This document shows positions 1,435 through 29,144 of a DNA stretch of 29,241 nucleotides, in pieces. The DNA is from Candidatus Fermentibacterota bacterium (GTDB lineage Bacteria > JAFGKV01). The notes under the pieces are model-generated. The model did no database searches. It was not told where the DNA came from and was given only the letters and a program-made list of their open reading frames with translations. A program made the translations under genes and the position numbers. Where the stretch lies: NCBI GenBank assembly GCA_016928395.1, contig JAFGKV010000078.1, positions 1 through 29,241 on the forward strand, in the 5' to 3' direction. Position 1 is the stretch's first letter. Every line of letters begins with the position of its first letter.

Positions 1435-2631
1435 GTGAAGCAGGAACGGAAACGCCTGGGAACGATGCTGGTGGAAGAGCAGATCATCACCGAGCATCAA
1501 CTCAAGGAAGCACTCCAGCATCAACATAGAACTGGCCAGATCCTCGGCAATGTCCTTGTGGAACTGGGTTTCGTCGAGGAGAGCGTCCTGCTTCCGCTGC
1601 TGGCACGACACTATGCACGTCTGCAGCCGACCCTTGCGGACTGCAAGATCAGCGCAGACATCATCAACCTGATTCCTGCCTCCATGGCCCATGAGTACCA
1701 GGCCATGCCCATCGGCGCCTCCTTCGATCAGGTGACCGTCGCCTTTTCCAACCCCATGAATGACCGCGCTGTGCAGTCCATCTCGGCGTATCTCCGCCGC
1801 AGGGTGAGGCCGGTCCTGTGCCCGCGGGATACGCTGAGCAGGGCCATCATCCTCCATTACGGTGCCGCGGCGGCTGCGGGATCCGTCGTCGCTGCCCCGG
1901 CACCGGTCTTCCCTCAGCCTCCCCCTACGCTGTCCTTCGAGACATTCGTGGTCGGGGATGCCAACAGAGCGATATTCCTTGCGGCCGAGGAGGCCGCGGA
2001 GTATCCCGGTACCACGCGAAACCCCCTGCTTATCTACGGTGAAGTCGGCCATGGCAAGACCCATCTGCTCTGTGCCATCGGCAACCGGGCCCTGGCCCGG
2101 GATCCCTCACGGTGCGTGGCGTGGCTTACCGCAACCGAAGTCGAACACGATCTGACGGAGGCCATTGAGACCAAGTCAGTGGATGGCTTTCACACACGAT
2201 ACCAGCGTGCGGATTTCCTCCTGCTTGATGACATACAGTTCCTTGCCCGCCACCGGGGCGTTCAGCAAGAGTTCGCCAAGCTGTTCCGCCTTCTCTGTGC
2301 CCAGGGCAAGCAGGTCGCGGCAACGAGTGACCGACCTCTGGAGGAGATCGAGGTGCTGCTCGACGAGGTGCGTTCACAATTCTCCACGGGAGCCGCGGTG
2401 TATGTCGGTACCGCCAGTGTTGCTCTGAAGACGGCAATCCTGATGGCAAAGCAGAAACGATCCGAGACCAGGCTACCCGACGCATTGATCGCCGAACTTG
2501 CCCAGGAACTTCCCGACGATATCCGCTATCTGGAGGGCACCCTCCGTAATCTCTCCCTGCGCATAGCCATCAGCGGCGAGACACCCACCATCGAGACGAT
2601 CCGCAAGCACCTGGCGATCATGCGGGCCTGA
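1435..2631 (+). CDS. Fusion protein: N-terminal MshEN/T2SSE_N-type (c-di-GMP-receptor-like) domain, Ala/Pro linker, then a DnaA domain-III AAA+ module. It is Hda-like and has no domain IV.
   Basis: Two tandem 24-residue MshEN-type motifs: RLGTMLVEEQIITEHQLKEALQHQ and ILGNVLVELGFVEESVLLPLLARH. DnaA signatures: FETFVVGDANRAIF…NPLLIYGEVGHGKTHLLCAIGN (Walker A), LLLDDIQFLARHRGVQQEF…GKQVAATSDRPLEEI (Walker B / box VII region) and a sensor-II-like RYLEGTLRNL. The ORF ends where DnaA domain IV would begin. The ORF track starts at TTG 1402. I prefer GTG 1435, which has a GGGAGGGA RBS 6 nt upstream. Confidence 0.75.
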   Translation: MKQERKRLGTMLVEEQIITEHQLKEALQHQHRTGQILGNVLVELGFVEESVLLPLLARHYARLQPTLADCKISADIINLIPASMAHEYQAMPIGASFDQVTVAFSNPMNDRAVQSISAYLRRRVRPVLCPRDTLSRAIILHYGAAAAAGSVVAAPAPVFPQPPPTLSFETFVVGDANRAIFLAAEEAAEYPGTTRNPLLIYGEVGHGKTHLLCAIGNRALARDPSRCVAWLTATEVEHDLTEAIETKSVDGFHTRYQRADFLLLDDIQFLARHRGVQQEFAKLFRLLCAQGKQVAATSDRPLEEIEVLLDEVRSQFSTGAAVYVGTASVALKTAILMAKQKRSETRLPDALIAELAQELPDDIRYLEGTLRNLSLRIAISGETPTIETIRKHLAIMRA

Positions 2632-2671
2632 CCGGTAGCGCGTGACTCAATCAGGAGAAAGGAGCGGGGTC

Positions 2672-4573
2672 ATGACTCATACCCATGCCGACGAGCCCTT
2701 TGTGCCTGCCCATGTCCAAATCCCTGAAATCAGTGCGGCCGCAGTGCTGCTCGGTATTGCGCTTTCGGTCGTCATGGGTGCGGCCAACGCCTATCTGGGA
2801 TTGTATGCCGGCATGACTGTCAGTGCCTCAATTCCTGCCGCAGTAATCAGTATGGCCATACTACGCGGAGTGTTCCGTAGAGGCACTATCCTGGAGAACA
2901 ACATAGTCCAGACCATGGCATCCACGGGCGAGAGCCTGGCGGCGGGCATCGTGTTCACGGTGCCCGCGTTGGTTCTGGTTGGTGCCTGGCAGGACTTCAG
3001 GTTCATCCCCACGACGCTCATCGCATTGCTGGGAGGGTTGCTGGGGATCGTCTTCATGGTGCCCATGCGCCGCGCCCTCATCGTGGAACGCCGTGACCTC
3101 ACCTACCCTGAGGGCCTTGCCTGCGCGGAAGTACTGGTCACAGGGGAGCGCGGCGGCTCCGGCGTGCTCGCGATCGGGCTTGGCATGATCACCGGGACGG
3201 TGTTCAAGATCCTTGTCAGTGGAGTCAGACTGGTCAAGGAGACCGTGGAATCGGCCACCGCTGCCGCGGGCCGAGCCTTGTATATTGGGGCCGATATGAG
3301 CCCTGCCTTGATGGCGGTCGGCTATATCGTAAACCTGCAGGTAGCCGCCCTTATCACCCTCGGCGGGGTCATCGCATGGTGGATCGTCTTGCCGCTCTTG
3401 GGTGGGGTGCCCGCCGGGTCTTCACCGCTGGAAGCAGCGGGGAGTCTGTGGAGCAGCCATATCCGTTTCGTGGGCGTCGGCGCCATGGTGGTGGGGGGCG
3501 TGAGTTCCATCTGGAACGTACGGCAAGGCCTGATCGCGGGGATCACGGGTCTGCGTCGCCCGCGGCCCATTACAGCCGGGGATTCCGCCATTCTGAGAAC
3601 CGAGCAGAATATCCCCCTCTTGGCCCTCATGGCGATCTTCGGCCTGTCCACCGTGGGGACATTCCTGTTCTACGATGCGGTACTCGCCCAGGTCCATCTC
3701 GCGGCAATCATGACCATCATCATGGTTGTCGTTGCATTCCTGTTCGTGGCGGTCGCCACCTACATCGCCGGGCTCGTGGGTTCCTCCAACTCGCCAGTAT
3801 CCGGCATGACCATTTGCGCATTGCTCGTCGCATCCGGCGTGCTGCTGGCCATGGGCATACGGGGTGAGTCCGCCATCCTGGCCAGCTTGTCCGTGGCCGG
3901 CGTGGTCTGCTGTGCCACCTGCACCGCGGGCGATATCGCACAGGACTTGAAGACCGGAGTTCTGGTGGGCGCCACACCGGCAAAGCAGCAGTGGATGGAG
4001 ATGGTCGGCGCGGTCATCCCCGCCTTCTTCTTCGCTCCCGCCCTGTCTCTCCTGCACCACGCCTACGGCATCGGCACCGGCGCTCCGGGCAGTCTCCGGG
4101 CGCCTCAGGCGGTCCTGTTCGCCAGTCTGGTGCAAGGTTTTTTCGGCGACAAAGGCCTTCCGTGGGACATGCTGGGCATCGGAGTGGGAATCGGGGTGGG
4201 CCTCCTGCTGGTCAACTGGATCCTGGGCAGGGCCGGCAGCCCGTTCCGCGCCCACATCATGCCCGTTGCCGTGGGGATCTACCTACCCATGTCGCTGGAT
4301 GTGCCCATTCTGCTGGGAGGGCTCCTTCGCCACATTGTCGGCAAGACCCGCGCTCCTTCCCAGGCAGGGCATGACCGGGGAGTGCTCTTCGGTTCGGGTA
4401 TCATCGCCGGCGAGGCCATCATGGGCATCCTGCTGGCAATACCCATCTGCCTGAAGCCGGGTTTGCTGCCCGATCTTGGAGGCCGAGGCGGCCTCTCCCT
4501 CGCCTTGTTCGCTGCGGTGCTGGTGGGCTACTGGGTCATGGCGAAAGGCTCGAGGGAGCGTCCCGCGGCCTGA
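2672..4573 (+). CDS. OPT-family (oligopeptide transporter superfamily) integral membrane transporter.
   Basis: About 630 aa polytopic membrane protein. N-terminal region LGIALSVVMGAANAYLGLYAGMTVSASIPAAVISMAILRG…TMASTGESLAAGIVFTVPALVL is typical of bacterial OPT proteins. ATG 2672 is preceded by AAAGGAG. It lies 41 nt downstream of the previous gene on the same strand. Confidence 0.8.
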   Translation: MTHTHADEPFVPAHVQIPEISAAAVLLGIALSVVMGAANAYLGLYAGMTVSASIPAAVISMAILRGVFRRGTILENNIVQTMASTGESLAAGIVFTVPALVLVGAWQDFRFIPTTLIALLGGLLGIVFMVPMRRALIVERRDLTYPEGLACAEVLVTGERGGSGVLAIGLGMITGTVFKILVSGVRLVKETVESATAAAGRALYIGADMSPALMAVGYIVNLQVAALITLGGVIAWWIVLPLLGGVPAGSSPLEAAGSLWSSHIRFVGVGAMVVGGVSSIWNVRQGLIAGITGLRRPRPITAGDSAILRTEQNIPLLALMAIFGLSTVGTFLFYDAVLAQVHLAAIMTIIMVVVAFLFVAVATYIAGLVGSSNSPVSGMTICALLVASGVLLAMGIRGESAILASLSVAGVVCCATCTAGDIAQDLKTGVLVGATPAKQQWMEMVGAVIPAFFFAPALSLLHHAYGIGTGAPGSLRAPQAVLFASLVQGFFGDKGLPWDMLGIGVGIGVGLLLVNWILGRAGSPFRAHIMPVAVGIYLPMSLDVPILLGGLLRHIVGKTRAPSQAGHDRGVLFGSGIIAGEAIMGILLAIPICLKPGLLPDLGGRGGLSLALFAAVLVGYWVMAKGSRERPAA

Positions 4574-5145: not shown

Positions 5146-5562
5146 TTACCGCAGGAGCACCTTGAAAGTCGCCGCGCCCTCCTCGGCACAGAGGAGTTCC
5201 AACGGGCGGACCTCACCCGGGGAGACGAACACCTGTGTCCAATCTACGGTAGCGTCCAGGAGAGAACCCGACGGATCGAAGAATCGGGCCTTGACCTCGA
5301 TCATCTCTTGGGACCGCCCACCGTTGCGAATCCAGACCGTGAGATTCATCCGACCATACGCATTGAGGGCATGTTGGATCTTGGGCACCTCGATCCCCGG
5401 GTGCTGAACGGTCATGACGATCTCGAAGGATGGATCCGCACTCTCCACTCTCACCACTGGAATAGAAGCCGATCCGCCGTCCCAGGTTCGGGTGGCCGAC
5501 GACCCTCGCATGCCCGCGCAGGCGAGGAGACACAGCAGTGCAATGCACGTTGTCCTACCCAT
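5146..5562 (-). CDS. Small lipoprotein (139 aa, lipobox LLAC), last gene of the wzm-wzt unit.
   Basis: Signal peptide MGRTTCIALLCLLAC^AG. A strong AGGAGG lies 6 nt upstream of ATG at 5562. The start overlaps the 3' end of wzt by 8 nt. The ORF-track start at 5631 would lack a signal peptide and overlap wzt more deeply. Confidence 0.6.
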   Translation of the reverse strand: MGRTTCIALLCLLACAGMRGSSATRTWDGGSASIPVVRVESADPSFEIVMTVQHPGIEVPKIQHALNAYGRMNLTVWIRNGGRSQEMIEVKARFFDPSGSLLDATVDWTQVFVSPGEVRPLELLCAEEGAATFKVLLR

Positions 5563-6802
5563 GGGATACCTCCTGCTCTCTGTCAGACGGGGAGAATGAT
5601 TCCTCGTGGCGGTGAAACCAGCTTCCGGCAAGATTCACTACCCCTTCCTTCTCGCGAGTACCTTCCTTGCCCACTCTGAACCGGTACATGGTGTCATGGT
5701 GATCGTAGGGATGCCGGATGCTCTGGTCATATACAGCCGCCGACAGAAAATAGACCCCGGGAAGCAAAGGAAGCCGGTCGACGTGGAACTCGACCGACCC
5801 CGGGCCGGCAACCCTCCCAATATTCAACCCACCCGTGGCCGTATTGGGTCCCGACACGTGTACCCCGTCAAGGCGATGGATGCCAATGCCAAACACCGGA
5901 TGATCAATGGGAACATGGGCGCGATACTCGATTCTCACCGTGAACGGTTTCCCGGTGAGCGGCAGATCCTCCTCGCCACCTTCGCCGTGAATCGCCACGC
6001 CTTGAATCTCGATTTCGCGGCTGCCCCATCTCGTGCCGTGTTCGTCTGGATTCGATACCGTCTGCGATTTGTCAGCAGACGCCATATAGGCATTCACCAC
6101 TGACTCCGCCTTGCCGGAGGCCGCAATGGCACCATGTTCCAGCCAGATGGCGCTATGGCACGTTTGTCGTACCTGCGCCATGTCGTGGGTCACCAGAACC
6201 ACGCATTTCCCCGCGGCCCGTAGTGCGTCGATCTTCTCCAGGCACCGCCGCTGAAACTCTTCATCGCCCACCGCCAGAACCTCATCCACCAGAAGCACCT
6301 CGGGATCTAGGTGGATGGCAATGGAGAACCCCAGGCGCATGAGCATGCCCGACGAGTAGTACTTCAGAGGGCTGTCTATGAACTCACGGACTCCCGAGAA
6401 CGCAACGATCGCGTCGCGCTTTTGGGCAACTTCGGATGGCCCCATTCCTAACAATGCCCCATTTAAGTCAATGTTCTCCAAGCCAGTGAGTTCAGGGTGA
6501 AAACCGGCCGCCAGGTCCAGTAGCGCACCAACCCGTCCCTGGGTCTGAATCGACCCATTGGTGGGCTCCATCACGCCCGCGATGAGACGCAGGAGCGTGC
6601 TCTTCCCCGACCCGTTTGAGCCAAGCACTCCGAAGACTTCTCCTGCATGAACACGGAACGAAACATCCCGCAGCGCCCAGAGTTCATCGACTGTGCCTCC
6701 CCGCCACCTGGTCCGGATGAAGCGTTCCCGCAAACTGGTAGGCCGGTGATGCTCCAACGCGAAACGCTTGGCCACACGGTCTACCACCACGGGGGCCGTC
6801 AT
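5555..6802 (-). CDS. wzt: Polysaccharide ABC exporter ATP-binding protein Wzt, with a C-terminal carbohydrate-binding (Wzt_C-like) domain.
   Basis: Walker A GSNGSGKST, ABC signature YSSGMLMRLGF, Walker B LLVDEVLAVGD and an H-loop VTHDM. A C-terminal beta-rich extension of about 160 aa follows. The ATG overlaps the wzm stop in a tcat/ATGA arrangement at 6799-6802. Confidence 0.85.
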   Translation of the reverse strand: MTAPVVVDRVAKRFALEHHRPTSLRERFIRTRWRGGTVDELWALRDVSFRVHAGEVFGVLGSNGSGKSTLLRLIAGVMEPTNGSIQTQGRVGALLDLAAGFHPELTGLENIDLNGALLGMGPSEVAQKRDAIVAFSGVREFIDSPLKYYSSGMLMRLGFSIAIHLDPEVLLVDEVLAVGDEEFQRRCLEKIDALRAAGKCVVLVTHDMAQVRQTCHSAIWLEHGAIAASGKAESVVNAYMASADKSQTVSNPDEHGTRWGSREIEIQGVAIHGEGGEEDLPLTGKPFTVRIEYRAHVPIDHPVFGIGIHRLDGVHVSGPNTATGGLNIGRVAGPGSVEFHVDRLPLLPGVYFLSAAVYDQSIRHPYDHHDTMYRFRVGKEGTREKEGVVNLAGSWFHRHEESFSPSDREQEVSHG

Positions 6803-7644
6803 AGTTCCTCAAGAAAGAAACGTTGGCGCCAACTGAAGAATCCCCATCCCGCCAGCAGGACAAGACCGGAGAGGGCACAGGCGACCACGCCCCACAGACG
6901 CAGGTCAATGGCTGGAGTGGGAATGTTCATAAGCGCCGAACGATAGACCATCATCAGGGTTGCCATCGGATTCAGGAAGTAGGCGGCTGCCAACGCCCGT
7001 GGAGCGGTATCCAGAATCATGTGGGGTGCGTAGAACACCGGGCAAAGGTAGAACCAGCCGAACAGCACTACTTCCAGAATCACACCGACGTCGCGGGCGT
7101 AGACGTTGGCTGCTGCCACGAACATGGCCAGTCCTGCCAGTAGTGCCACCTGGCAGACTATGGCGCCTGGCAACATGAGGAGGCGAATGCCCGGGGCGAT
7201 GCCTGAGAAGGCGAGGTACCCCAAGAGGGGGATCAGAGCCAGCACGAAGTTGACGCCATTAGAGAGCACTACGGCCAGGGGGAGCACCTCCCGGGGAAAA
7301 GCAACCTTGTGCATCAGGCTGGCAGCATCCACCACGGATCGGACCGACGTCGAAAGACTCGTCGCCACGAATAGCCAAGGAAGATACCCGCAGAGGATAT
7401 AGGCTGGATAGTGGGGAATGCCCTCATTGAACCTGCCCACATAGCTGAACACGACTGCCAGTACCATCATCATCAGAAACGGGTGCAACAGAGACCAGAC
7501 AACACCGAGCACGCTATTCTTGTACCTAGCCTTGAGATCTCGCCGGGCAAGCTGAATCAGAAGATGCCTATAGAGCCAGATCCGAGGCACAGGAAATCCG
7601 CGGTCCGTGCCACCGCTCGGCGAGGGCACACTCACGGGGACCAC
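6799..7644 (-). CDS. wzm: ABC-2 type polysaccharide exporter permease Wzm.
   Basis: N-terminal LIQLARRDLKARYKNSVLGVVWSLLHPFLMMMVLAVVF is the canonical Wzm/KpsM/TagG motif. The rest shows a six-TM hydropathy pattern. Confidence 0.8.
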   Translation of the reverse strand: MVPVSVPSPSGGTDRGFPVPRIWLYRHLLIQLARRDLKARYKNSVLGVVWSLLHPFLMMMVLAVVFSYVGRFNEGIPHYPAYILCGYLPWLFVATSLSTSVRSVVDAASLMHKVAFPREVLPLAVVLSNGVNFVLALIPLLGYLAFSGIAPGIRLLMLPGAIVCQVALLAGLAMFVAAANVYARDVGVILEVVLFGWFYLCPVFYAPHMILDTAPRALAAAYFLNPMATLMMVYRSALMNIPTPAIDLRLWGVVACALSGLVLLAGWGFFSWRQRFFLEEL

Positions 7645-8564
7645 ATGACGACGTTGTTTCCGCCCAGAGCCTTGGCACGGTAGAGCGCGCTGTCCGCACG
7701 CCGGATGAGCGTGTCGGTGACTAAATCATCAGCTGTAGCCGCTGACACAAGACCAAAACTGGCGCTGATCGTCTGTGTGCGGGGAAGCGACGGCACAGCG
7801 AGCTGGGCTATCCGAGTTCGAAGGTTTTCGGCCTTGGACCGCGCTCCGTCTACGCCCGCCAGCGGAAAGACAATGAGGAACTCGTCGCCGCCATAGCGGC
7901 CGACATGATCTGTCTTGCGGCAATTGGCCATGAGAGCCTGGGCGACCTGAACGATGACATCGTCGCCGACCTGGTGCCCAAAGCTGTCGTTGATCTGCTT
8001 GAACCTGTCAAGATCTAGCATGGCACAGGAGAGCGCCGTGCCCTGGCGCACCGCTCGGAGCACTTCCATTGAAAGCTGCTCGACAATCTTGCCGTGGTGG
8101 TGCAGGCCGGTGAGCGAATCCCTGCTGGCCAGATCGGCCAGGCGGGATGTCATCTCCTCCAGCCTTTGGGTAAGTCGGGCCATGCGGAGATTCGTGCCTA
8201 CCCGGGCCATCAGTTCGTCCAGAGAGAATGGTTTTTCCATGTAATCATTCGCGCCCAGGTTCAAACCTTCCACCTTGCTGGCGGCATCTGTACGCATGGC
8301 CGTGAGGAGGATGACGGGCGTATGGAGGAACCGTGCATCCTCCCTCAGTTGGGTCAGGAGGGTGAGCCCGTCGATTTTCGGCAGTTTGATATCCACCACG
8401 AACAGGTCGGGGAGCCAGTCCTCAACCACCGCCGTGGCGCCCTCGGCCGAGTAGGCGGTCTGAACCTCGTATCCTTGTGTCCGTAAGGCAAACTCCAACG
8501 CCCGGCAGATGTTGATGTCATCATCGACGACAAGCACCCTGGCCCCCACATAGTTTGCGTCCAC
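7632..8564 (-). CDS. Response-regulator diguanylate cyclase (REC + GGDEF) with an intact I-site.
   Basis: Receiver: LVVDDDINICRAL…DLFVVDIKLPKIDG…EKPF. GGDEF domain: RDSLTGLHHHG…LDLDRFKQINDSFGHQVGDDVI…RKTDHVGRYGGDEFLIVF, with the RxxD I-site 5 residues before GGDEF. Confidence 0.85.
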   Translation of the reverse strand: MDANYVGARVLVVDDDINICRALEFALRTQGYEVQTAYSAEGATAVVEDWLPDLFVVDIKLPKIDGLTLLTQLREDARFLHTPVILLTAMRTDAASKVEGLNLGANDYMEKPFSLDELMARVGTNLRMARLTQRLEEMTSRLADLASRDSLTGLHHHGKIVEQLSMEVLRAVRQGTALSCAMLDLDRFKQINDSFGHQVGDDVIVQVAQALMANCRKTDHVGRYGGDEFLIVFPLAGVDGARSKAENLRTRIAQLAVPSLPRTQTISASFGLVSAATADDLVTDTLIRRADSALYRAKALGGNNVVMWSP

Positions 8565-8576
8565 CCCGCCCCCCGG

Positions 8577-10010
8577 TCACCCTTCTGCCGATGGATGTTC
8601 GGCGAGCGCGGGAAGCGTGAAAGTGAATACGCACCCTCTGGGGCTATTGTCGTCTACCCAGATCCTCCCACCGTGGCGCGACACAATCTCCTTGCAAATG
8701 GACAAACCCAACCCCGTGCCGGGATGCTTGCCGGTGGTCGCATCACCCAGTTGCTGGAAACGCATGAACACCCGGTGTCGAGACTCCTGGGGGATACCGA
8801 CACCCTGGTCTGCAACCGTGATAGCGACCTCCTCTCCATCCATACGGGATGATACCAGCACCTCGTCACCCGGATGACTGAACTTCACCGCATTGGAAAG
8901 GAGGTTGACCAGAACTTGCTTGATCCGGTCGCGATCAGCAATAACAACCTGAAGCAGCGGTGCCGGCATCACCTTAAGAGTGATCTTTCGCTCCTCCGCC
9001 GAGGGCTTCTGGAGCTCAACCACGTTCCGCACCAGTTCGCCAATATCCAGCTTCTGCAGCCGCCACTCAGTCTGGCCGCTTTCGATCTTGGCAATGTCAA
9101 GCACATCATCTATCAGGCGGGTCAGTCTCTTTGATTCGTCGTTGATGATGCCAAGGAACTCCCGACGCCTCTCGCGCTGGTCATCGTCGAAGGTGAGGAG
9201 CAGTTCAGAAAACGACCTGATGCTCGTGAGCGGAGTCCGCAGCTCGTGCGACACGCTGGAGATGAACTCGTCCTTCGCCGTGTCGAGTTCCTTCAATTCT
9301 TCATAGGCCCGCCGCAGTTCCAGGGTTCTCTCGTGCACCATGGCTTCCAACTGCTTGTTGAAGGAGCCCATTCGATCAGTCAGTTCGATGGCGCGAAACG
9401 ATATTCCCCCCATCTGGGCAATAAGACCGGCCAGCCGAGGTGCATCCCTCGCCTTCGCCGCGATCTGCGCGACGTGGATAACCCCATTCAGCTCTCCTCT
9501 GGATCCGATGGGTGCCCACAAGTCTGGATTTAAAGGATGAATCTCCGCATCGTGGAGGTCCTCCCTGGAAAGCACGGTTCCGGCAACGAGCATCTCACCG
9601 ATACGCCCCTCGGGCAGCCTGATCGGCTCTCTGAGGTCACCAATGCCGGGAGCCCGTGACCACACCGCGCGCAAGTGCGAACCCTCGGCCATCAACACGA
9701 TGGCTTCCTTGGCACCGAGGAGCGCCATGGCGGCATCCCCGACGATCTGGGCCACCTCGTCCCGGCTCTTGCTCTGCGAGAGACGGGACGCCATGGTGGG
9801 CAAGGTCCGCAGGAGTGCGGACACCACTTCCTCTTCGCCCGCCAGCTTCTCCAGCGCTTGAGTGAGTGACTCCTCCAGCTTCTCCGTGGCCGCCGCCTTG
9901 CTCAACGCCATCCTGGTCTTGCGGTCCATCGATGCAGGGAGGAAATAGCGACCGATGAGCACGCCCAAGGCGATGAGACTCAATGAGAAAACTACCGCCG
10001 AAGTAATCAC
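8577..10010 (-). CDS. Membrane-anchored sensor histidine kinase (one N-terminal TM helix, GAF-like sensor, HisKA, HATPase_c).
   Basis: H-box SVSHELRTPLTSI. N/G1/G2 boxes LLSNAVKFS, DQGVGIP, GTGLGLSI. GTG start at 10010 with a GGAGGGGG RBS. It sits directly upstream of the REC-GGDEF gene with a 12-nt gap. Confidence 0.85.
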   Translation of the reverse strand: MITSAVVFSLSLIALGVLIGRYFLPASMDRKTRMALSKAAATEKLEESLTQALEKLAGEEEVVSALLRTLPTMASRLSQSKSRDEVAQIVGDAAMALLGAKEAIVLMAEGSHLRAVWSRAPGIGDLREPIRLPEGRIGEMLVAGTVLSREDLHDAEIHPLNPDLWAPIGSRGELNGVIHVAQIAAKARDAPRLAGLIAQMGGISFRAIELTDRMGSFNKQLEAMVHERTLELRRAYEELKELDTAKDEFISSVSHELRTPLTSIRSFSELLLTFDDDQRERRREFLGIINDESKRLTRLIDDVLDIAKIESGQTEWRLQKLDIGELVRNVVELQKPSAEERKITLKVMPAPLLQVVIADRDRIKQVLVNLLSNAVKFSHPGDEVLVSSRMDGEEVAITVADQGVGIPQESRHRVFMRFQQLGDATTGKHPGTGLGLSICKEIVSRHGGRIWVDDNSPRGCVFTFTLPALAEHPSAEG

Positions 10011-10051
10011 CTTCCCCCTCCTTTTAATGGGTATTCAGGCACATTGTCGAG

Positions 10052-11166
10052 CTAAAGATACCTCTTCCTCGCGCCCGTCTCCAGATTCTCGACCAGGGCC
10101 TTGACATCTTGAGCGCGGTCTCGGGGACACACCAGGATCGCGTCCCCTGACTGCACGACAATCACGTCCTGCATCCCCACCAAGGCCACCAGCAAATCCT
10201 CGGATCGCACTCGGCATCCCGAGCAATCGACTAAGGTCACATCACCGCCGAGTAGGCGGTTGTCGCCGGCGGAAAGCGGCCAGTATCGCGATGCCGCCTC
10301 CCACGAGCCAACGTCATCCCAGCGAAAAGTCGATTCCACCATCGCCATGAGATGACTGTGCTCCATGATTCCGTGGTCCACCGAAACATCGGCCAGCCCT
10401 GAATACACCTCTCGGTGTGCTGCCAAGTCATCGTCGCCAAGCTCGCTCCCGAGGCGGCGCAACACCTCCGCGGTCGCGGGCAGCAAACGGGCTAGCTCGG
10501 CCCAGAGCACGTCCACCTTGGCTACAAACATCCCTGAGTTCCAGAAGTGTTCTCCTGACACGGCCCACTGCCGGGCATGGGCAAGATCCGGCTTCTCATG
10601 AAAGCTCTTGACCTCAAACGCCCGCGGCTGTGCTGCGTCATGCAGCGCGGCGCCGACCCGCATGTACCCGTATCCTGTCTCCGGGCTTGTGGGAACGATG
10701 CCGAAGGCCACCACTCTCCCGGATTCCGCCAGTGCCCATGCCCGATCAAGGCACAGACGAAAACCATCTAGGTCTTCCACCACATGATCCGAGGGGAAGA
10801 AGCCCACGGTGCCGCCTTCTTCACGACGCAGTTGGAGCCATCGCAAAGCCAGCCCGACGCACGCAGCGGTGTTCCTGCCCACGGGCTCTGCCAGTACGTG
10901 ACCCGTGGGCAACTCGGGAAGCTCCGTGCGGACTGCCGATGCCTGTTCCCCGTTGGTCACCACCATCAGATGATCCCACCCCACAACATCGGCGAGACGT
11001 TGCCCTGTCTGGCGTAGCAGCGTGTCCGCCCCGACGACGGGGATAAGATGCTTCGGCCTAGTTCGTCGACTCAGAGGCCAGAAACGTCTTCCCAGGCCTC
11101 CGGCCATGATACAGGCCCAGCGTGAGGGAACGCCATCGAACGGCCTTCGAGCAACCCAATCCCTCT

Positions 11167-11170
<4 letters not shown>
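10052..11170 (-). CDS. manC: Mannose-1-phosphate guanylyltransferase (GDP-mannose pyrophosphorylase; P. aeruginosa WbpW-like).
   Basis: MAGGLGRRFWPLSR…KHLIPV…AEPVGRNTAACVGLA…FPSDHVV…FGIVPTSPETGYGYM. The ATG overlaps the rmd stop in a tcat arrangement at 11167-11170. Confidence 0.85.
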
Positions 11171-13118
<1,948 letters not shown>

Positions 13119-22470: not shown

Positions 22471-23844
22471 TCACATCCCCGAGATCGACATCTCCGCGAT
22501 TCTGAAGGTCGGCGTGGCGATGGTGCCTGTAATGCGCAGGTCATTTCCCACCATGTCAATCGCCTGGATCATCTCGCGGATGGTCCCTGCGATGCTGATC
22601 CCGCGCACGGGGTAGGCCCGCTCACCATCCTCTATCCAGATACCCATGGCCGCCGAGGAGAATGCGTCGGTGGCCGGGGAGAGGTTGAGCCACCAGCCCG
22701 AAAGGCTGGTCACCAGAAGCCCGCGACCGGTAGCCGCGATGATTGCCTCCGGATCATGCGTTCCTGGCTGCAGTTGAAGATTCGAGAACCCGACATTGGG
22801 AGCCTCGCGGTACGAATCGCGGACCGCATGGCCACCCGGTTCAACCCGTAGTTTCGCCGCACTGTCCCGGTCGGTCAGGTATGCCTCTAACCTTCCTCGG
22901 TCGATCAAGGCCCGGTCTTTGGTGGGCGTCCCTTCCCCGTCGAATGATCGGTGACCGGGGCCCGCCAGGTTGTGGGGCGTGTCGCGGATCGTCACCAGAG
23001 ACGAGGCAACCGCATCTCCCAGGCGATCGGCGAAGTAGGATCGTCCCTGGACCACATGGTCACCCCGCAACGCCGCAGAAAGCCAGACCAAGAGTGGCCA
23101 CCCGATCCAGGGAGGGAAGATCACGGGGACGCGAGCGGAGACGACCGGCCTGGCTCCCAAGAGCATGGCTGCCCGCTCCCCCGCCGCAGCGCCGACCCAT
23201 TCCGCTTCGGGAAGGCTGCCCCGGCTTGGCGCGCTTACGTAGCAGGCGCCTGTGGCGCTCTGCCCATCACGCTCCGCAATGGCCTCCGCTTCGATGGTGA
23301 TCGAGCATGACGGCTCTTTCAGCGCCAGGCCCAGGGAGTTGGCCAGCGCGACAAGTCCGTTTGTCTGGGTCCACTTCACGGAAACCGTCTCGCTCACCCC
23401 CTTCACCGCCGCCATGGCCCGCTCGGCAGCCACAAGCCACGACGTGGGTTCCGTCAGCGACTGTTCCGCCAGGCCGGGATCCTGGTGGGCATGAGGGGCC
23501 ACGGCCACTGCGGCCGCCAGAGCGAATGGTTCCTCGACGGGCGGCAGAGCGCGGGCGATCTCCACCGCCTTGGCCGCCAGTGCTGCCAGGGCCGAATCCG
23601 AGAGGTCGGTGGTGTGCACGAGCGCGCGCCGGTTGCCGCTTTGCACCCGAAGTCCCAGGCCGCGGGTCAGGGCCTGCTGAAGATGCTCGACGTCGCCATG
23701 ACGAACTTCGATCTGAAGTTCTGATGCGGTCTGCGCATACGCATCGGCGGCATCCGCGCCGGAGTCGATGGCGGCACGAACGGCCCGGATGGCCGCAGCG
23801 AGGGGGTCCGTGTTCACTGCTGCTCGATGCGGTGGTGTCGTCAT
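22471..23844 (-). CDS. pmbA: PmbA/TldE-family protein, the non-catalytic partner of the TldD metalloprotease. It has no signal peptide.
   Basis: TldD/PmbA fold without an HExxxH motif. The ATG overlaps the tldD stop in a tcat arrangement at 23841-23844. The ORF-track start at 23940 would overlap tldD by 100 nt. Confidence 0.8.
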   Translation of the reverse strand: MTTPPHRAAVNTDPLAAAIRAVRAAIDSGADAADAYAQTASELQIEVRHGDVEHLQQALTRGLGLRVQSGNRRALVHTTDLSDSALAALAAKAVEIARALPPVEEPFALAAAVAVAPHAHQDPGLAEQSLTEPTSWLVAAERAMAAVKGVSETVSVKWTQTNGLVALANSLGLALKEPSCSITIEAEAIAERDGQSATGACYVSAPSRGSLPEAEWVGAAAGERAAMLLGARPVVSARVPVIFPPWIGWPLLVWLSAALRGDHVVQGRSYFADRLGDAVASSLVTIRDTPHNLAGPGHRSFDGEGTPTKDRALIDRGRLEAYLTDRDSAAKLRVEPGGHAVRDSYREAPNVGFSNLQLQPGTHDPEAIIAATGRGLLVTSLSGWWLNLSPATDAFSSAAMGIWIEDGERAYPVRGISIAGTIREMIQAIDMVGNDLRITGTIATPTFRIAEMSISGM

Positions 23845-25334
23845 GCCGTGCCTCCCACGGTGATACGGGAAATCCGAAGTGTCGGGCATGCACTGGTAAC
23901 CGGTGCCGATTGGTTTCCCTTGCCGCAGGTCCCCGGCCATGACCCGAAGTCCGCGCCGACTCGATCGATCCGCTCCAAGACTTCGATCCCGGAGCCCACC
24001 AGAGTGGCGCCCCGAATTGGCGCCGTGACCACGCCATTCTCGATGAGGTAGGCTTCAATCAACCCGAAGGTGAACTGGCCACTGGCGGTGTCCACCTCGC
24101 CTCCGCCAAAGGCTGCGGCATACACCCCTCGATCCGTGCGCTTCACGATGTCTGCCGGATCCTCATCGCCCGAGGCCAGAAAGGTATTGCTCATGCGGAC
24201 CAGCGGCGGGAATCTGAACGACTCTCGGCGACCATTGCCCGTGGAGCGGCTTCCCATGGCATGCGCAGACCTGCGATCATGGAGATACCCGGTCAGAATC
24301 CCCCGATCCACCAGGAGTGTGCGAGCAGCCGGGGTGCCTTCATCGTCGACATTGTAGCTTCCCCTCTCCCCTTCCAGGGTAGCGTCGTCGTAGATGGTCA
24401 CCAGCTTCGACGCCACCGTCTGGCCCATGCGGCCCGCGAAGATGGAGGCATTCCGCATGACCGCGTCGGCTTCGAGCCCATGACCAATGGCTTCGTGGAA
24501 CATGACACCTCCCCCCGCGGCCACTACGACGGACATCTCACCGGTGGGCGCGGGCACGGCATCCAGCATACGCATCGCCTGAAGTGCCGCCTCCCGCCCG
24601 ATCTGCTCGGGCGTCTCCCTGTCGAATAGCTCCATGCCTGCTCGACGTGACGCCCGCTGAAGGCCCTCGGCGCTTCGACCGCTTCGAGAGGCCGTGGCGG
24701 TAGCGCGGATGGAGATCATGGGGAGCATGTCCTGCAGCACCTGGCCCGTGGACGTGGCGATGAGCATGTGCTGCACCTCATCGTGGTAGCTGACGACCAC
24801 TTGCTGCACGGCCGGGTCCACCGCCCGGGCGGCGCGGTCAACCCGTTCCATGAGCGATACCTTGTCGCGTATGGGGGCACGCTCCAGGTGGTCGCGCATG
24901 GGCACCCGCGAGAAAACAGCCACGCGGCCCAGCCCCCGGGGTAGACCCGCAGGCCCCGCAGCGATGGATGCCGCGACCTCGGCGATGGGTATCAGGGCCT
25001 CCTGATCGAGGGTTTCCGCAAAACCGTAGCCGGTCTTCTCGCCATGCAGAGTCCGCACTCCCCCACCCTGCTCGACTCCATATTCCAGTGAGCGGATCTC
25101 ACTGCTGCTCATGGTGATGCGGGTGACCGCCCGAGACTCGATGTAGACATCGGCATACCAGCCGCCCCGCGCGAGCGCTCGGATCAACACCGGGGCCAAC
25201 TCCTCGTCATCGGGAAACGCCACACTGCCCGGTATGGGCTCCTCTTCCCGCCCCCACGCTCCCATGGGCGCGGCGATGAGGACTGCGGATGTCCCCTTCA
25301 GGAACGTACGCCGCGACATTCTCCATGGAACCAT
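23841..25334 (-). CDS. tldD: TldD-family zinc metalloprotease with a twin-arginine (Tat) signal peptide.
   Basis: MVPWRMSRRTFLKGTSAVLIAAPMGAWG carries an S-R-R-x-F-L-K Tat motif. Catalytic HEAIGHGLEAD (HExxxH). GAGGAG RBS 6 nt upstream of ATG 25334. Confidence 0.85.
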   Translation of the reverse strand: MVPWRMSRRTFLKGTSAVLIAAPMGAWGREEEPIPGSVAFPDDEELAPVLIRALARGGWYADVYIESRAVTRITMSSSEIRSLEYGVEQGGGVRTLHGEKTGYGFAETLDQEALIPIAEVAASIAAGPAGLPRGLGRVAVFSRVPMRDHLERAPIRDKVSLMERVDRAARAVDPAVQQVVVSYHDEVQHMLIATSTGQVLQDMLPMISIRATATASRSGRSAEGLQRASRRAGMELFDRETPEQIGREAALQAMRMLDAVPAPTGEMSVVVAAGGGVMFHEAIGHGLEADAVMRNASIFAGRMGQTVASKLVTIYDDATLEGERGSYNVDDEGTPAARTLLVDRGILTGYLHDRRSAHAMGSRSTGNGRRESFRFPPLVRMSNTFLASGDEDPADIVKRTDRGVYAAAFGGGEVDTASGQFTFGLIEAYLIENGVVTAPIRGATLVGSGIEVLERIDRVGADFGSWPGTCGKGNQSAPVTSACPTLRISRITVGGTA

Positions 25335-25730
25335 CACAGACTCCTCTCGCTCTGCAACGGCGCATTGCCCGCGCCACCGCCGAACACACCGATGTAACGA
25401 CAACGTGCCAAGATGTGATCGCGCTTCACCGCCGGCAAGACGCGGCTGGCCCCCTGAACACCTTCCAGTCGACGGTTCACGGTTGGCAGCACGGCTTCCG
25501 CTGGAAGCTTTCAACGATCGGCTCGCGGCCTTGGGCATCTCTCCCCAGGCCTATGGGCACAGGGAAGTCAGACTACGTGAACAGTCGCCACAACGCATTC
25601 CGCACTCGCAAGGTTGTATGAAGGCTGCCCCACACTGCACGCCTGACTTGATCTTCTGCCGCGGGGCGCCATGTTACGGCGTCGTGGAAGAGCTGCCCAG
25701 TGCGAAAACCCTGTCCATGGGAGGTTCCTG

Positions 25731-28700
25731 ATGCGCCGCTGCCTGATGATCGCATTGCTCCTGGTACCCGTGGTGGCCAATGCCAACGCCTACCACACTA
25801 TCACCGTTGACGGGAATCTTTCCGAGTGGGATACCGCTGGCGAGAAGTGGACAACCTCCACCCTCGGCAAGTACGGCTACATCACCTGGGACGCCGACTC
25901 CCTCTACATCGGTTTCGAAGGCATCAACATAGGCGACCACGGAGGCTACAACCAGGCCCTCTTCGCTGCCATCGACATCGATCCCATGCCCGGGCTTTCC
26001 GAGGGCGCCGGAGACTCCACCCTCCCGTATGAGCAGTACTATGCAGGGTCGACAGTCAATCTGCCGTTCAATGCCGACTTCCTATACTCCGCCAAGGCCT
26101 CGGCCGGCGCGCCTGAGAAGCATGTCTGGCAGCACGATGGCTCTTCCTGGTTTCGCGACGGCGCGGGCGGCACTTCCGACCTCCGAAGCGAGATTCACGT
26201 CGCGTGGTCAACGTCATACTTCGAGATGGCCATACCCCGCTCTCATTTCGCCTACGGCTCCCACATCCACATGGTCATGTACGCCAAGGACCTGAGTTCG
26301 AATTCAGGGTGGGGGTGGCTCTATGCGGGAGTGCCGGACAACGGCACCAGCGACGGCAACAATGACAAAACCTTCAGTCACTTCTACGGCTTCCGCCTGG
26401 GTCCCGATATCCGCCCCAACGACGGCATCTTCTACGACGCGGCTCAGGGCAGCGTGTTCTGGACCGGCGATCCCCCAGGACCCAACGACACGGTTGAGAT
26501 TCTCATCCGTGACTGCACCCAGGGCGGCAATCTCCATTGGGGTGTGAACAACGATGATGGCACCTGGACGCAGCCCATCGCCGCCTACTGGCCGGCGGGC
26601 AGTTCGGCGTCAGGCACGGGGGCCGTCGAAAGCCCGCTGACCGGCCCCGATGGGAGTGGTGAGTGTACCATCAGTGTGGGTCCTTTCAACACCGGAGAGC
26701 AGTTGGTGCTGACCGTTGATTTCGTCATTCACTGGGATGATGACACGTGGGACAACAACGGCGGCCTCGACTACCAGATCGCCCTCTGGCTGGTGCCGAG
26801 GGCCGGCGAGCCAACCGCCACGCTCTCCTATCCGCCGTCTGATACCTCGTTCGTGCAGGGCGACACGGTGAGCGTTGCCTGGTCCAGCACCGGCGCGACG
26901 CAGACCACCCTGTGGCTCGACGGCGTCGACGTAGCCACCTCATCACCCTATGAATGGTATACGGAGACCGACTCTCTGGGGCGGCATCTGCTGGTAGTGG
27001 AAGCGCAGAACGCCGGTGGCGCGGTGGCCTTTGACTACGGCTACGCCTGGGTCACGCCCACGGTTGAGGAAGAGGAGCCGCCCGCAGGTGCCTCACCGGG
27101 TGCGTATGACAACGGTGACGGCACGGTCACCTTCATGCTCTGGGCGCCCGGCAAGCACTTCGTGACCCTACCCGGCGACTTCAATTCGTGGGACAGCGAT
27201 GCCACCTTGCTCAAGGTCTACGCTGATAGCGTGTGGTGGACGACCCTCTCGTTGTCCAATGGCACCTACGAATACCGTTTCCTGGTGGACGGAATTCTCC
27301 CCATCGCCGACCCGTATTCCCGTCAGCTCAACTGGACCAGCGGTGGTTCCCAGTCAGGTGATTGGCGCATCGCCAAGTCGGTGATCGAAGTGGGCGCTGC
27401 GCAGTTCGCGTGGACCGACGGGTCGTGGACAGCGCCTGCGCCTGAAGACATGATCATCTACGAGACCCACCTGGGCGACTTTTCCGAGAGCGGCGACTTC
27501 GCGGGTCTGGAGGCCCGTCTCCCCTACCTTGCCTCTCTGGGCATCAATGCCGTGGAGATCATGCCCTGCTACGAATTCCCCGGCGGCATCAGTTGGGGCT
27601 ACAATCCCGCCTACTTTATGGCGCCCGAGGCGGTGTACGGTACGCCCGAAGACCTGAAGAGCCTGGTGGATACGGCGCACTCCTACGGTATCGCCATCCT
27701 CATCGACATGGTATTCAACCATCTCGACGCCTCTGCATCGCTCTATCGCCTCTACGGCACCGACTGGGATGCCAGCCCCTGGTTCCACGCCATGACAAAC
27801 CCGTGGGGCTTCCCGGATCTAAATCACTGGAGCGACGGGACCAAGCAGCTCACCAAGGATGTGCTGGAAATCTGGATGGATGAGTATCACGTAGACGGGT
27901 TCCGCTACGACGCCACCACGTTCATCGGATGGGATGGCGTGGGTGACGATACGGGCAACGGTATCGGCTACTTCACCTACGTGGCGTGGGATCACAACAA
28001 CGATGTCTACCAGGTGCTGGAGCACCTCCCCCAGGATCCTGCGGTTGTGGCGGGCACCAAGGCGACCTCGGGCTGGCATGATACCTTCCATGATCAGATG
28101 AAGGCCAATCTGCGGGAAGGCCAGTTCGAGGGGTCGTCCTATGGCAACATGACGGTCACGGGCCAGGCTATTCACTATGCCGGCGATGGGTTCGCCGATG
28201 AGTCGGAGGTGGTGAACTACACCGAGAGCCACGACGAGCAGCGCATCATCTGGGAGGCCCAGACCAATCCGACCATCGACTATGCGCTGGCGGTGAAGAA
28301 ATCGAGGTTGGGAGCCGCCATCCTGTTTGCCTCGACGGGCACACCCATGATGTACCACGGCCAGGAGTTCGGTGAAGACACGGAACGTACCATCGACCCC
28401 AATCCCCTGCACTGGGAGTATCTCGAACAGCCAGTGGGCGCCTCGCTCTTCCAGCTCTACTCACGCCTGATCTGGCTCAGGAAGAACTACCCGTCGCTCA
28501 CCAGCGGGAACCTGTTCACGACTTTGCAGGACGACGCCAACCACACCATCTCATTCTGGCGGTGGACCGATGCGGGAACCGACTCGGTGGTGGTAGTCGC
28601 CAACTTCGATCGCAGCGCCAAGGCTGTCAGCGTCGCCTTCCCGGTCACGGGCACCTGGTACGAGTTCCTGGGAGATTCGACCGTATCGGTGGGGTCATCA

Positions 28701-29144
28701 CCCCGTGTGGTGACCATCCCCGGCTCGGAAGCGCGAATCTACTGCCGCAACAAACGCTGGACCTGGGATTCCGTGCCGCCGGCGGCACCTGCGACGGTGA
28801 CGCTGACTCCAGGCACGGGGTCGATCACCATCTCGTGGTCTGCCGTGACCACCGACAGCCTCGGGCAACCGGAGAATGTTGCCTACTACGAAATCTTTCG
28901 CAGCACAGAGGCCTACTTCGATGCCGAGAGCCAGACATTCTTCGCTTCGGCCAGCGGCACGACCTACGTCGACAACTCACCGCCCGCAGGCAAGGTATTC
29001 TACCGCGTTCTCGCCTGGGATACATCGGGAAACCGCGGCGCATCATCCGTTGCCGAAGGCTGTTTCGACTTCTCCACCGGCGGCTCTGCCCAAGGCTCCT
29101 CCGCGTCCTTGGGTGGGCGATCCCGGCTGGGTCTGTTCAGATAG
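25731..29144 (+). CDS. Secreted multidomain GH13-family alpha-glucan-active enzyme (1137 aa). Domains: signal peptide, about 430 aa of N-terminal beta-sandwich/putative starch-binding modules, CBM48, (beta/alpha)8 catalytic domain, C-terminal FN3-like domain.
   Basis: Signal peptide MRRCLMIALLLVPVVANANA. GGGAGG RBS. CBM48: VTFMLWAPGKHFVTLPGDFNSWD…YEYRFLVDG. GH13 regions: I AILIDMVFNHL, II VDGFRYDAT (nucleophile Asp), IV NYTESHDEQ. The C-terminus has an FN3-like domain. Confidence 0.85.
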   Translation: MRRCLMIALLLVPVVANANAYHTITVDGNLSEWDTAGEKWTTSTLGKYGYITWDADSLYIGFEGINIGDHGGYNQALFAAIDIDPMPGLSEGAGDSTLPYEQYYAGSTVNLPFNADFLYSAKASAGAPEKHVWQHDGSSWFRDGAGGTSDLRSEIHVAWSTSYFEMAIPRSHFAYGSHIHMVMYAKDLSSNSGWGWLYAGVPDNGTSDGNNDKTFSHFYGFRLGPDIRPNDGIFYDAAQGSVFWTGDPPGPNDTVEILIRDCTQGGNLHWGVNNDDGTWTQPIAAYWPAGSSASGTGAVESPLTGPDGSGECTISVGPFNTGEQLVLTVDFVIHWDDDTWDNNGGLDYQIALWLVPRAGEPTATLSYPPSDTSFVQGDTVSVAWSSTGATQTTLWLDGVDVATSSPYEWYTETDSLGRHLLVVEAQNAGGAVAFDYGYAWVTPTVEEEEPPAGASPGAYDNGDGTVTFMLWAPGKHFVTLPGDFNSWDSDATLLKVYADSVWWTTLSLSNGTYEYRFLVDGILPIADPYSRQLNWTSGGSQSGDWRIAKSVIEVGAAQFAWTDGSWTAPAPEDMIIYETHLGDFSESGDFAGLEARLPYLASLGINAVEIMPCYEFPGGISWGYNPAYFMAPEAVYGTPEDLKSLVDTAHSYGIAILIDMVFNHLDASASLYRLYGTDWDASPWFHAMTNPWGFPDLNHWSDGTKQLTKDVLEIWMDEYHVDGFRYDATTFIGWDGVGDDTGNGIGYFTYVAWDHNNDVYQVLEHLPQDPAVVAGTKATSGWHDTFHDQMKANLREGQFEGSSYGNMTVTGQAIHYAGDGFADESEVVNYTESHDEQRIIWEAQTNPTIDYALAVKKSRLGAAILFASTGTPMMYHGQEFGEDTERTIDPNPLHWEYLEQPVGASLFQLYSRLIWLRKNYPSLTSGNLFTTLQDDANHTISFWRWTDAGTDSVVVVANFDRSAKAVSVAFPVTGTWYEFLGDSTVSVGSSPRVVTIPGSEARIYCRNKRWTWDSVPPAAPATVTLTPGTGSITISWSAVTTDSLGQPENVAYYEIFRSTEAYFDAESQTFFASASGTTYVDNSPPAGKVFYRVLAWDTSGNRGASSVAEGCFDFSTGGSAQGSSASLGGRSRLGLFR

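Follow-up and report, generated by a model that had tools for sequence, protein, structure and literature searches.

An MshEN-DnaA domain III fusion protein of Candidatus Fermentibacterota, and the family of candidate c-di-GMP-responsive adaptors to which it belongs

Hda, a DnaA-family AAA+ protein that lacks the DNA-binding domain IV, stimulates DnaA-ATP hydrolysis (regulatory inactivation of DnaA, RIDA) through its arginine finger. Among the receptors for cyclic di-GMP (c-di-GMP), a second messenger whose effectors are under-counted, the MshEN domain belongs to the small number of high-affinity modules that are portable. Vibrio cholerae MshE carries the motif (R/K/L)LGxxhhxxGhhxxxxLxxxLxxQ twice, each copy being 24 residues long, with a 5-residue spacer in between; its G11L and G40I variants showed poor if any c-di-GMP binding, any change in the conserved hydrophobic residues (the Leu cluster of L10, L25, L29, L39, L54, and L58) cost more than 10-fold in affinity, and the polar residues R9, D12, and Q32 had an effect of less than 5-fold (PMC5013675). 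The GSPII-B domain of Thermus PilF binds the ligand with a dissociation constant of 6 nM and opens its second motif with the hydrophobic residue L196, the L196R substitution weakening binding fourfold (PMC11731258), and some MshEN domains, for example those of XpsE (PMC5013675) and PilF GSPII-A (PMC11731258), do not bind c-di-GMP. In MshE, PilB, and PilF the output is a T2SSE hexameric ATPase; NfrB and other fusions with non-T2SSE outputs indicated that MshEN is a portable c-di-GMP input (PMC8669469; PMC5013675 Supplementary Table 4), and the outputs catalogued in 2016 included T2SSE, glycosyltransferase, REC, HD-GYP, CheA, CheX, cyclase, kinase, AAA_31, and peptidase M23, with no DnaA-type output among the architectures of that survey and its supplement (PMC5013675). 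Here we describe a protein in which MshEN is joined to domain III of DnaA, so that the ATP-dependent oligomerization core of the replication initiator would be a newly seen c-di-GMP output. Its gene lies at positions 1435 to 2631 of a 29,241-nucleotide contig of a Candidatus Fermentibacterota bacterium (assembly GCA_016928395.1, contig JAFGKV010000078.1), and this whole stretch, at its full length, is referred to below as the window.

The longest open reading frame (ORF) around the fusion gene in the ORF listing of the window spans 1402 to 2631 on the + strand and encodes 409 amino acids (aa). The likely start is the GTG at 1435, and the resulting product does not differ in length or sequence from the NCBI protein P0001, annotated as 'ATP-binding protein [Candidatus Fermentibacteria bacterium]'. 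Residues of profile matches are given below in the numbering of the 409-aa ORF, and motif residues (G9, G38, Q315, etc.) in that of the 398-aa protein. The gene and its parts are as follows, where pLDDT is the predicted local distance difference test score.

1421-1427, + strand: Shine-Dalgarno-like GGGAGGG, read from the sequence, 7 nt before the GTG
1435-2631, + strand: coding sequence of the MshEN-DnaA domain III fusion, 398 aa (ORF listing, profiles, NCBI identity, relatives)
1453-1524, + strand: MshEN motif I, residues 7-30, RLGTMLVEEQIITEHQLKEALQHQ (translation, clade alignment)
1525-1539, + strand: 5-residue spacer HRTGQ between the MshEN motifs (translation)
1540-1611, + strand: MshEN motif II, residues 36-59, ILGNVLVELGFVEESVLLPLLARH (translation, clade alignment)
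1633-1872, + strand: C-terminal subdomain of MshEN, T2SSE_N1 type (Pfam PF05157; AlphaFold2 block-mean pLDDT 83-89)
1873-1896, + strand: Ala/Pro-rich disordered linker core, residues 147-154, at the position of DnaA domain II (AlphaFold2 model, pLDDT below 50)
1921-2628, + strand: DnaA domain III, comprising the AAA+ core, the initiator-specific helix pair, and the lid (profiles, PDB matches, Foldseek)
2038-2061, + strand: Walker A GEVGHGKT, with G202, G205, G207, and K208 invariant in the clade (clade alignment, translation)
2218-2232, + strand: Walker B LLLDD, with D265 and D266 invariant (clade alignment, translation)
2323-2337, + strand: sensor I TSDRP, with D299, R300, and P301 invariant (clade alignment, translation)
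2362-2382, + strand: box VII DEVRSQF (clade alignment, translation)
2518-2538, + strand: sensor II DIRYLEG, with R364 invariant (clade alignment, translation)

The N-terminal half matched the Pfam family MshEN (PF05157; residues 78-157, 55.4 bits, E = 6 × 10−15, cutoff 23.1) and the NCBIfam model NF053729, 'c-di-GMP_motif' (residues 18-69, 63.9 bits, cutoff 38), and the C-terminal half matched Pfam Bac_DnaA (PF00308; residues 177-332, 143.3 bits, E = 1 × 10−41). The NCBIfam DnaA model TIGR00362 aligned over its positions 106-335 of 437 with 206.9 bits, below the cutoff of 343.9; this match spanned domain III and the lid and stopped 5 residues short of the C terminus, indicating that domain IV is absent. 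The Pfam scan of the fusion protein returned neither PF11638 (DnaA_N, domain I) nor PF08299 (Bac_DnaA_C, domain IV), and the NCBIfam scan returned no model covering the protein at full length. In the AlphaFold2 model (pLDDT 86), Foldseek superimposed the C-terminal module on domain III of Bacillus subtilis DnaA (8bv3_A) with a root-mean-square deviation (rmsd) of 1.5 Å, a TM score of 0.93, and 34% identity, and the DnaA domain III structures of B. subtilis (8BV3/8BTG), Thermotoga maritima (2Z4R), and Aquifex aeolicus (2HCB/3R8F) lay within 1.5-1.8 Å at 32-35% identity. A first-pass annotation, made from the sequence without database searches, had read the gene as an MshEN-DnaA domain III fusion ending where domain IV would begin; Pfam, NCBIfam, PDB sequence matches (to DnaA domain III and to MshE, PilB, and PilF), and Foldseek bore out the fusion, the end of the TIGR00362 match agreed with the stated end point, and all peptides that it had quoted were verified by translation.

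The same annotation had itself raised two ways in which this assignment could be mistaken, a truncated dnaA and an IstB/DnaC-type ATPase, and either is hardly credible. The Pfam family IstB_IS21 did score 26.5 bits, just above its cutoff of 24.1, and the Joint Genome Institute (JGI) labels relatives of the protein 'chromosomal replication initiator protein DnaA'. These are outweighed by the Bac_DnaA score given above, by the NCBIfam IstB, DnaC, and DnaI models, all far below their cutoffs (NF038214, 47.7 versus 200 bits), by an N terminus that is MshEN rather than DnaA domain I, and by the lack of a transposase among the neighbors of the gene in the window. In addition, 23 relatives (38-91% identity), from independent assemblies, share the architecture and end shortly after the lid without domain IV. 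A truncated or misassembled dnaA was thus rejected, and profiles, relatives, and Foldseek together effectively refuted both the truncation and the IstB/DnaC identity.

The solved structure closest to the N-terminal half was that of V. cholerae MshE with c-di-GMP (5HTL, 35% identity), on which R7-L8-G9 aligned without gaps to R9-L10-G11 and I36-L37-G38 to R38-L39-G40, the spacer between the motifs being equal in length in the two proteins (PMC5013675). With MshE, PilB, and PilF GSPII-B the window protein shares the two 24-residue motifs, the 5-residue spacer, the T2SSE_N1-type subdomain that follows, the glycines, and the Leu cluster, and it differs from them in carrying a DnaA-type AAA+ module where they have the T2SSE ATPase. 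In motif I, R/K7, L8, G9, L12, V13, L23, L27, and Q30 were conserved across the clade of the window protein, and motif II of the protein retained G38, L41, V42, G45, L52, and L56. Among 24 clade members, G9, G38, L8, L23, L27, and L56 were invariant and L37 and L52 were each present in 23, which agreed with the first-pass annotation, the residues contacting c-di-GMP being well preserved. Conservation of at least 90% was found in this clade at 16 of 22 motif positions versus 8 of 33 other MshEN_N positions (p = 5 × 10−4). Across 213 fusion proteins, G9 occurred in 209 and G38 in 207, and about 97% had both glycines.

Three deviations from the published motif were noticed: position 10 of motif I is Q, and a residue other than Gly in 20 of the 24 clade members; motif II opens with I, M, or V instead of Arg (I in the window protein); and motif II closes with His rather than Gln. 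Because the critical glycines and the Leu cluster are kept, and the opener of motif II is of the type that raises affinity in PilF GSPII-B, it is likely that the MshEN domain of the window protein binds one molecule of c-di-GMP. Alternatively, the domain could be a docking module only, as the N1 domain of GspE/XpsE is on GspL or PilM-type platforms, and the protein an ATP-dependent scaffold that makes no use of c-di-GMP. The first and third deviations fit such a role, as do the XpsE and PilF GSPII-A domains that do not bind the ligand (PMC5013675; PMC11731258), but we consider it improbable, since little or no variation is seen in the clade at the binding-critical glycines and the Leu cluster, whereas the PilB proteins of the pilus loci described below have lost one of the glycines, NF053729 scored well above its cutoff, and the polar residues that are replaced contribute less than 5-fold in MshE.

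The AAA+ half shares with DnaA its fold, the initiator-specific helix pair, and the lid, as well as four sequence elements: Walker A (GxxGxGKTHL), Walker B (LLxDDIQF), sensor I (TSDRP), and the arginine of sensor II. Since these four elements are invariant, ATP binding is probably retained. Box VII differs. Its canonical form in DnaA is R-L-x-S-R-F, and both arginines were present in 91 of 91 DnaA sequences; in the window protein, the position of Escherichia coli R281 is E311 and that of the R285 arginine finger is Q315, and in 21 of 23 clade members both arginines were lost, with E or D at the former position and Q, H, or D at the latter. R313, which is invariant in the clade, lies between the two lost arginines at the position of E. 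coli K283. The B-motif position of the lysine through which DnaA contacts single-stranded DNA (ssDNA; E. coli K243, Aquifex K188) was basic in 84 of 91 DnaA sequences versus 5 of 23 clade members, in which flanking arginines were common nearby. D362 is common to the window clade and to the Hydrogenedentota fusions introduced below, and the residue is Asn in 81 of 91 canonical DnaA sequences. With both box VII arginines, the ssDNA-contact lysine, and domain IV gone, an initiator role is excluded, and the module probably can receive the arginine finger of a neighbor but not donate one in the canonical way. The window protein is further set apart from DnaA by the lack of domain I and of an origin-type gene context, the latter exemplified by the locus of the best full-length DnaA match (P0033), which reads rpmH-dnaA-recF-dciA-gyrB.

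Hda and HdaA are, like the window protein, DnaA-family AAA+ proteins without domain IV, and the first-pass annotation had taken the fusion for an Hda-type regulator of DnaA activity. Yet Hda has an N-terminal beta-clamp-binding motif and an arginine finger, and the window protein has neither: a clamp motif of the QL[SP]LPL or QFxLPL type was found in 0 of 23 clade members, and the finger position is Q315. The Hda model TIGR03420 scored 64.4 bits against a cutoff of 194.8, and Foldseek aligned the protein to Hda structures with an rmsd of 4.3-5.3 Å at 19% identity. Hda membership was thus rejected on profile score, structure, clamp motif, and arginine finger, and the Hda mechanism, which relies on the finger, is excluded.

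The fusion joins two well-known modules into a new architecture, and this architecture proved to be common. Its compact form of about 400 aa comprised about 25 clusters at 90% identity, from metagenome-assembled genomes (MAGs) of Fermentibacteria or 'Eisenbacteria', and a search with a longer relative (P0026) returned many proteins of 490-920 aa with the order MshEN-linker-DnaA-III. Of the matches listed for P0026, all 120 that covered both halves had this order; those with a named source came from Candidatus Hydrogenedentes/Hydrogenedentota and carried only the labels 'DnaA/Hda family protein' or 'ATP-binding protein'. An exhaustive profile search covered 1.84 billion cluster representatives at 50% identity, with architectures taken from the best 150: 96 were MshEN-DnaA-III, 4 were MshEN-DnaA-III-DnaA-III, 37 were tandem DnaA-III-DnaA-III proteins without MshEN, 7 had a single DnaA-III, and 6 had multiple MshEN domains. 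Counted together, the MshEN-DnaA-III and MshEN-DnaA-III-DnaA-III proteins make up at least 100 clusters at the 50% identity level, and they occur in Candidatus Hydrogenedentota and Fermentibacterota. On the remark of the first-pass annotation that the combination is not a described family, full-text literature searches found no paper on it, and none on a DnaA-like protein in pilus clusters, so that the remark held for the literature searched, although the architecture itself is widespread.

Members of the family have an MshEN domain with both motif glycines, a linker of variable length, and DnaA domain III with the lid and no domain IV, and the window protein has all of these. In the Hydrogenedentota proteins the motifs are near-perfect (RLGxxLxEEGLI...Q, a 5-aa spacer, and F[IL]GxxLVxLGY...LVKQ, again with a hydrophobic residue opening motif II). 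Among the MshEN-DnaA-III representatives, box VII had both arginines in 78 and one in 17, and both were lost only in the representative of the window clade. In a neighbor-joining tree of the AAA+ module, the Fermentibacteria fusions formed a clade with 91% bootstrap support and the Hydrogenedentota fusions one with 86.5%, and the two groups fell together, with or without a DnaA-III-only protein and apart from canonical DnaA, in about 85% of the replicates. A single ancient fusion behind both groups is therefore plausible from these sequences.

The tandem DnaA-III-DnaA-III proteins (P0242-P0251 and others) are about 650 aa long and have neither MshEN nor domain IV. Similar DnaA proteins of about 640-656 aa without domain IV (P0392, P0407) are labeled Gemmatimonadota. 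Several have a degenerate box VII alongside an intact one.

The gene order of the family pointed to type IV pili. In six of six Hydrogenedentota-type loci, which came from different samples and had unrelated genes further upstream, the fusion gene lay directly upstream of pilB (MshEN plus T2SSE)-pilT-pilS-pilR on the same strand, with gaps of about 30-340 bp between the fusion gene and pilB, and two of the six also showed pilC. A scan of metagenome contigs with the Hydrogenedentota alignment picked up generic DnaA peptide patterns, and the 80 loci that it returned, mostly canonical dnaA, were useless for gene-order statistics. In Fermentibacteria, a pilus-type cluster bounded by pilD and pilB was found in the MAG CSMAG_2897 (locus L006, contig JAUXFG010000024.1, 3397-19244), with the order pilD, a 983-aa MshEN-...-DnaA-III protein, an MshEN-only protein, a compact MshEN-DnaA-III protein, a 1993-aa protein, TonB_C, and pilB. 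The 1993-aa protein is MshEN-DnaA-III-...-DnaA-III, and both of its box VII motifs are canonical. On a different contig (L005), the same MAG encodes an orthologue with 64% identity to the window protein. The PilB ATPases beside the fusions are listed here by locus.

L049, 6530-8248: PilB ATPase
L051, 6372-8099: PilB ATPase
L052, 4867-6594: PilB ATPase
L133, 10345-12075: PilB ATPase
L134, 10658-12379: PilB ATPase
L135, 9765-11513: PilB ATPase
L006, 17451-19244: PilB ATPase

In all seven of these loci, the motif II glycine of PilB (V. cholerae G40) was replaced by P, A, S, or T, and three of these PilB proteins have lost the motif I glycine too. All seven are predicted not to sense c-di-GMP, and the simplest reading of the sequences is that the adjacent fusion protein has taken over from PilB the sensing of c-di-GMP on behalf of the pilus motor. 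In Pseudomonas and Xanthomonas, PilB is served by FimX (PMC5595344, PMC8389850), and the pilus-linked fusions resemble the FimX(-PilZ)-PilB system in placing a separate c-di-GMP receptor beside PilB (PMC8389850, PMC5595344). FimX differs in that its sensing domain is a degenerate EAL domain and that it lacks an ATPase module; contact of the fusions with PilB is putative, and the window gene is not beside pilB. With the PilB glycine lost next to an intact fusion, these loci suggest a way of controlling pilus dynamics other than that of FimX. The window protein itself stands outside this pilus core, as it has neither a pilB-pilT-pilS-pilR cluster nor the canonical box VII arginines, and its clade is a dispersed, finger-less sub-clade of the family.

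Relatives of the window protein at 58-64% identity had neighbors different from those in the window and were found in three kinds of locus. In the first, a tandem pair lies about 3 kb downstream of genes for a DnaA-III-only protein and a TPR protein, themselves preceded by a sigma-54 response regulator gene; in the second, the same DnaA-III-only/TPR-like neighborhood contains one clade gene; and in the third, the gene lies two genes downstream of a fusion of a response-regulator receiver (REC) to DnaA domain III. The REC-DnaA-III proteins (L144:7817-8989; P0372-P0389) are about 390 aa long and form about 18 clusters, and we found no description of such a response regulator. Box VII reads DMMRSLF in REC-DnaA-III and SLRELF in the DnaA-III-only protein of L001; in each, as in the window protein, both canonical arginines are gone and the middle arginine is kept. 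On this sequence evidence, Fermentibacteria hold finger-less DnaA-III modules with a c-di-GMP-receptor head, a phospho-receiver head, or no head, often encoded together, which supports the idea that they may work jointly or on a common partner.

A conserved trio was seen 3-5 kb upstream of the MshEN-DnaA-III gene or genes in two loci (L001:2945-7079 and L143:4392-8325). Its members are the sigma-54 response regulator, the DnaA-III-only protein (255-276 aa, with a diverged sensor I and no canonical finger), and a 410-aa protein, for which Pfam confirmed TPR repeats in the L001 copy.

Taken together, these data led us to favor, at a rough probability of 0.4, a model in which the window protein, gated by c-di-GMP and loaded with ATP, is an adaptor that docks on a finger-bearing partner of the DnaA family. 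It would be a cytoplasmic signaling protein in which the flexible linker tethers the c-di-GMP receptor to the DnaA-type module. Binding of c-di-GMP to MshEN would alter the availability of the docking surface of the ATP-loaded AAA+ module, which would accept the arginine finger of the partner at its own ATP site and, being unable to pass one on, would act as a terminal or capping, non-propagating subunit. Paralogues of the family would be the likeliest partners, that is, the pilus-cluster MshEN-DnaA-III proteins, REC-DnaA-III, or a DnaA-III-only protein, and the output would bear on the pilus or on surface behavior rather than on oriC. The specific choice of a finger-bearing paralogue with a pilus or surface output is put forward tentatively and may well be wrong, and the initiator DnaA is a doubtful partner. 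The size of the family in these two poorly studied phyla suggests reuse of DnaA domain III outside replication, as a general module for signal output or assembly behind MshEN or REC heads. The fusion proteins are small and soluble-looking and are accessible in vitro, even though the organisms are uncultured.

Several points weigh against this model. The affinity for c-di-GMP could be reduced or lost, because motif I lacks Gly10 and motif II ends in His. R313 might be a displaced arginine finger, which would undo the argument that the module cannot donate one, and finger-less AAA+ domains can act as monomeric switches without a partner. The 29-kb window contains no pilus genes, no replication genes, and no other DnaA-III gene, and the sole conserved neighbor of the fusion gene is a transporter gene. 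The Fermentibacteria and Hydrogenedentota fusions are 33% identical, no more than either is to DnaA (35-40%), and their MshEN domains fail to form a group that leaves PilB out; since a common origin is only moderately supported, carrying the pilus link over to the window clade is uncertain.

The closeness to DnaA also allows a reading in which the protein regulates replication under c-di-GMP control, co-assembling with the DnaA of the cell and either promoting hydrolysis in the manner of Hda or capping and poisoning filaments at oriC at high or low c-di-GMP. The output module is about 35-40% identical to canonical DnaA at an rmsd of 1.5 Å, and its intact ATP site would take the arginine finger of DnaA; a filament cap would look like a copy of DnaA without domain IV and finger, and swappable sensor heads (MshEN, REC) on one and the same module fit a regulatory decoy. 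The Hda-like variant is, however, excluded by the missing clamp motif and finger and by the Hda score. None of about 15 family loci examined lay near dnaA, dnaN, recF, or gyrB, the gene order of the family favors type IV pili instead, and a contig with as many as three or four paralogues would be unusual for a dedicated regulator of the initiator. The proposal of the first-pass annotation that the protein gates replication initiation was based on homology, and none of the fusion loci examined was near dnaA, dnaN, or an origin. We therefore regard a c-di-GMP-controlled replication regulator as a poor prospect, and slightly poorer still the bolder version in which finger-less DnaA-III decoys, with an MshEN head, a REC head, or none, cap the DnaA filament at oriC to veto or license replication in Fermentibacterota. 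Literature searches turned up no direct link from c-di-GMP to DnaA; were DnaA the target, the protein would let a second messenger hold back the initiation of replication directly.

In the window, the fusion gene is flanked by a secreted-protein gene and a gene for an OPT-family oligopeptide transporter, and the following features surround it.

1247-1281, + strand: perfect 13-bp GC-rich hairpin, directly 3' of the stop codon of the upstream secreted-protein gene (read from the sequence)
2642-4573, + strand: OPT-family oligopeptide transporter gene, 10 bp downstream of the fusion gene (ORF listing, profiles)
7632-8564, - strand: REC-GGDEF diguanylate cyclase with intact GGDEF and RKTD I-site (profiles, translation; context only)

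The transporter gene is probably co-transcribed with the fusion gene, and it lies 10 bp downstream also in an 82%-identical relative. This adjacency, the absence of pilus genes from the window, and the fact that the ssDNA lysine and both inter-protomer arginines are missing, which fits a non-oligomeric switch, would suit a function peculiar to the window clade, such as c-di-GMP control of the OPT transporter or of metabolism, in which the AAA+ module would work as an ATP switch, either monomeric or dimeric. However, the OPT adjacency was confirmed in just the window and that one relative, the relatives at 58-64% identity have other neighbors, and the repeated adjacency to other DnaA-III paralogues argues for a joint function; a clade-specific role of this kind is thus unlikely, and we retain the adaptor model.

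The hairpin at 1247-1281 has no U-tract and was not called by the terminator scan of the window, and it is probably the end of the upstream secreted-protein transcription unit. A sigma-70 promoter scan found no promoter upstream of the fusion gene, with the terminator calls of the same scan at chance level, and an Rfam search of the window found no riboswitch or other RNA. The REC-GGDEF cyclase to which the first-pass annotation had drawn attention, about 5 kb from the fusion gene, is real, and being intact it indicates that the organism makes c-di-GMP; but its operon also contains genes for a histidine kinase and the Wzm/Wzt exporter, and a functional tie to the fusion gene was rejected, since the cyclase belongs to a separate minus-strand polysaccharide-export operon.

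The polysaccharide-export block (5555-13082, - strand) encodes a Wzt-type ABC ATPase with a Wzt_C domain, a Wzm permease, the REC-GGDEF cyclase, the histidine kinase, a mannose-1-phosphate guanylyltransferase, and two GDP-mannose dehydratase/epimerase proteins. The secreted-type protein upstream of the fusion gene (55-1236, + strand) has a PPC pre-peptidase domain and a FlgD-Ig-like domain, as well as a weak, below-cutoff match to the C-terminal sorting domain of the type IX secretion system (T9SS; Por_Secre_tail), and this domain content fits an organism resembling the Fibrobacteres-Chlorobi-Bacteroidetes (FCB) group. Toward the far end of the window lie ordinary-looking genes, namely two adjoining genes for PmbA/TldD-family metallopeptidases (22471-25538, - strand) followed by a gene for a 1157-aa alpha-amylase/CBM48 protein (25671-29144, + strand).

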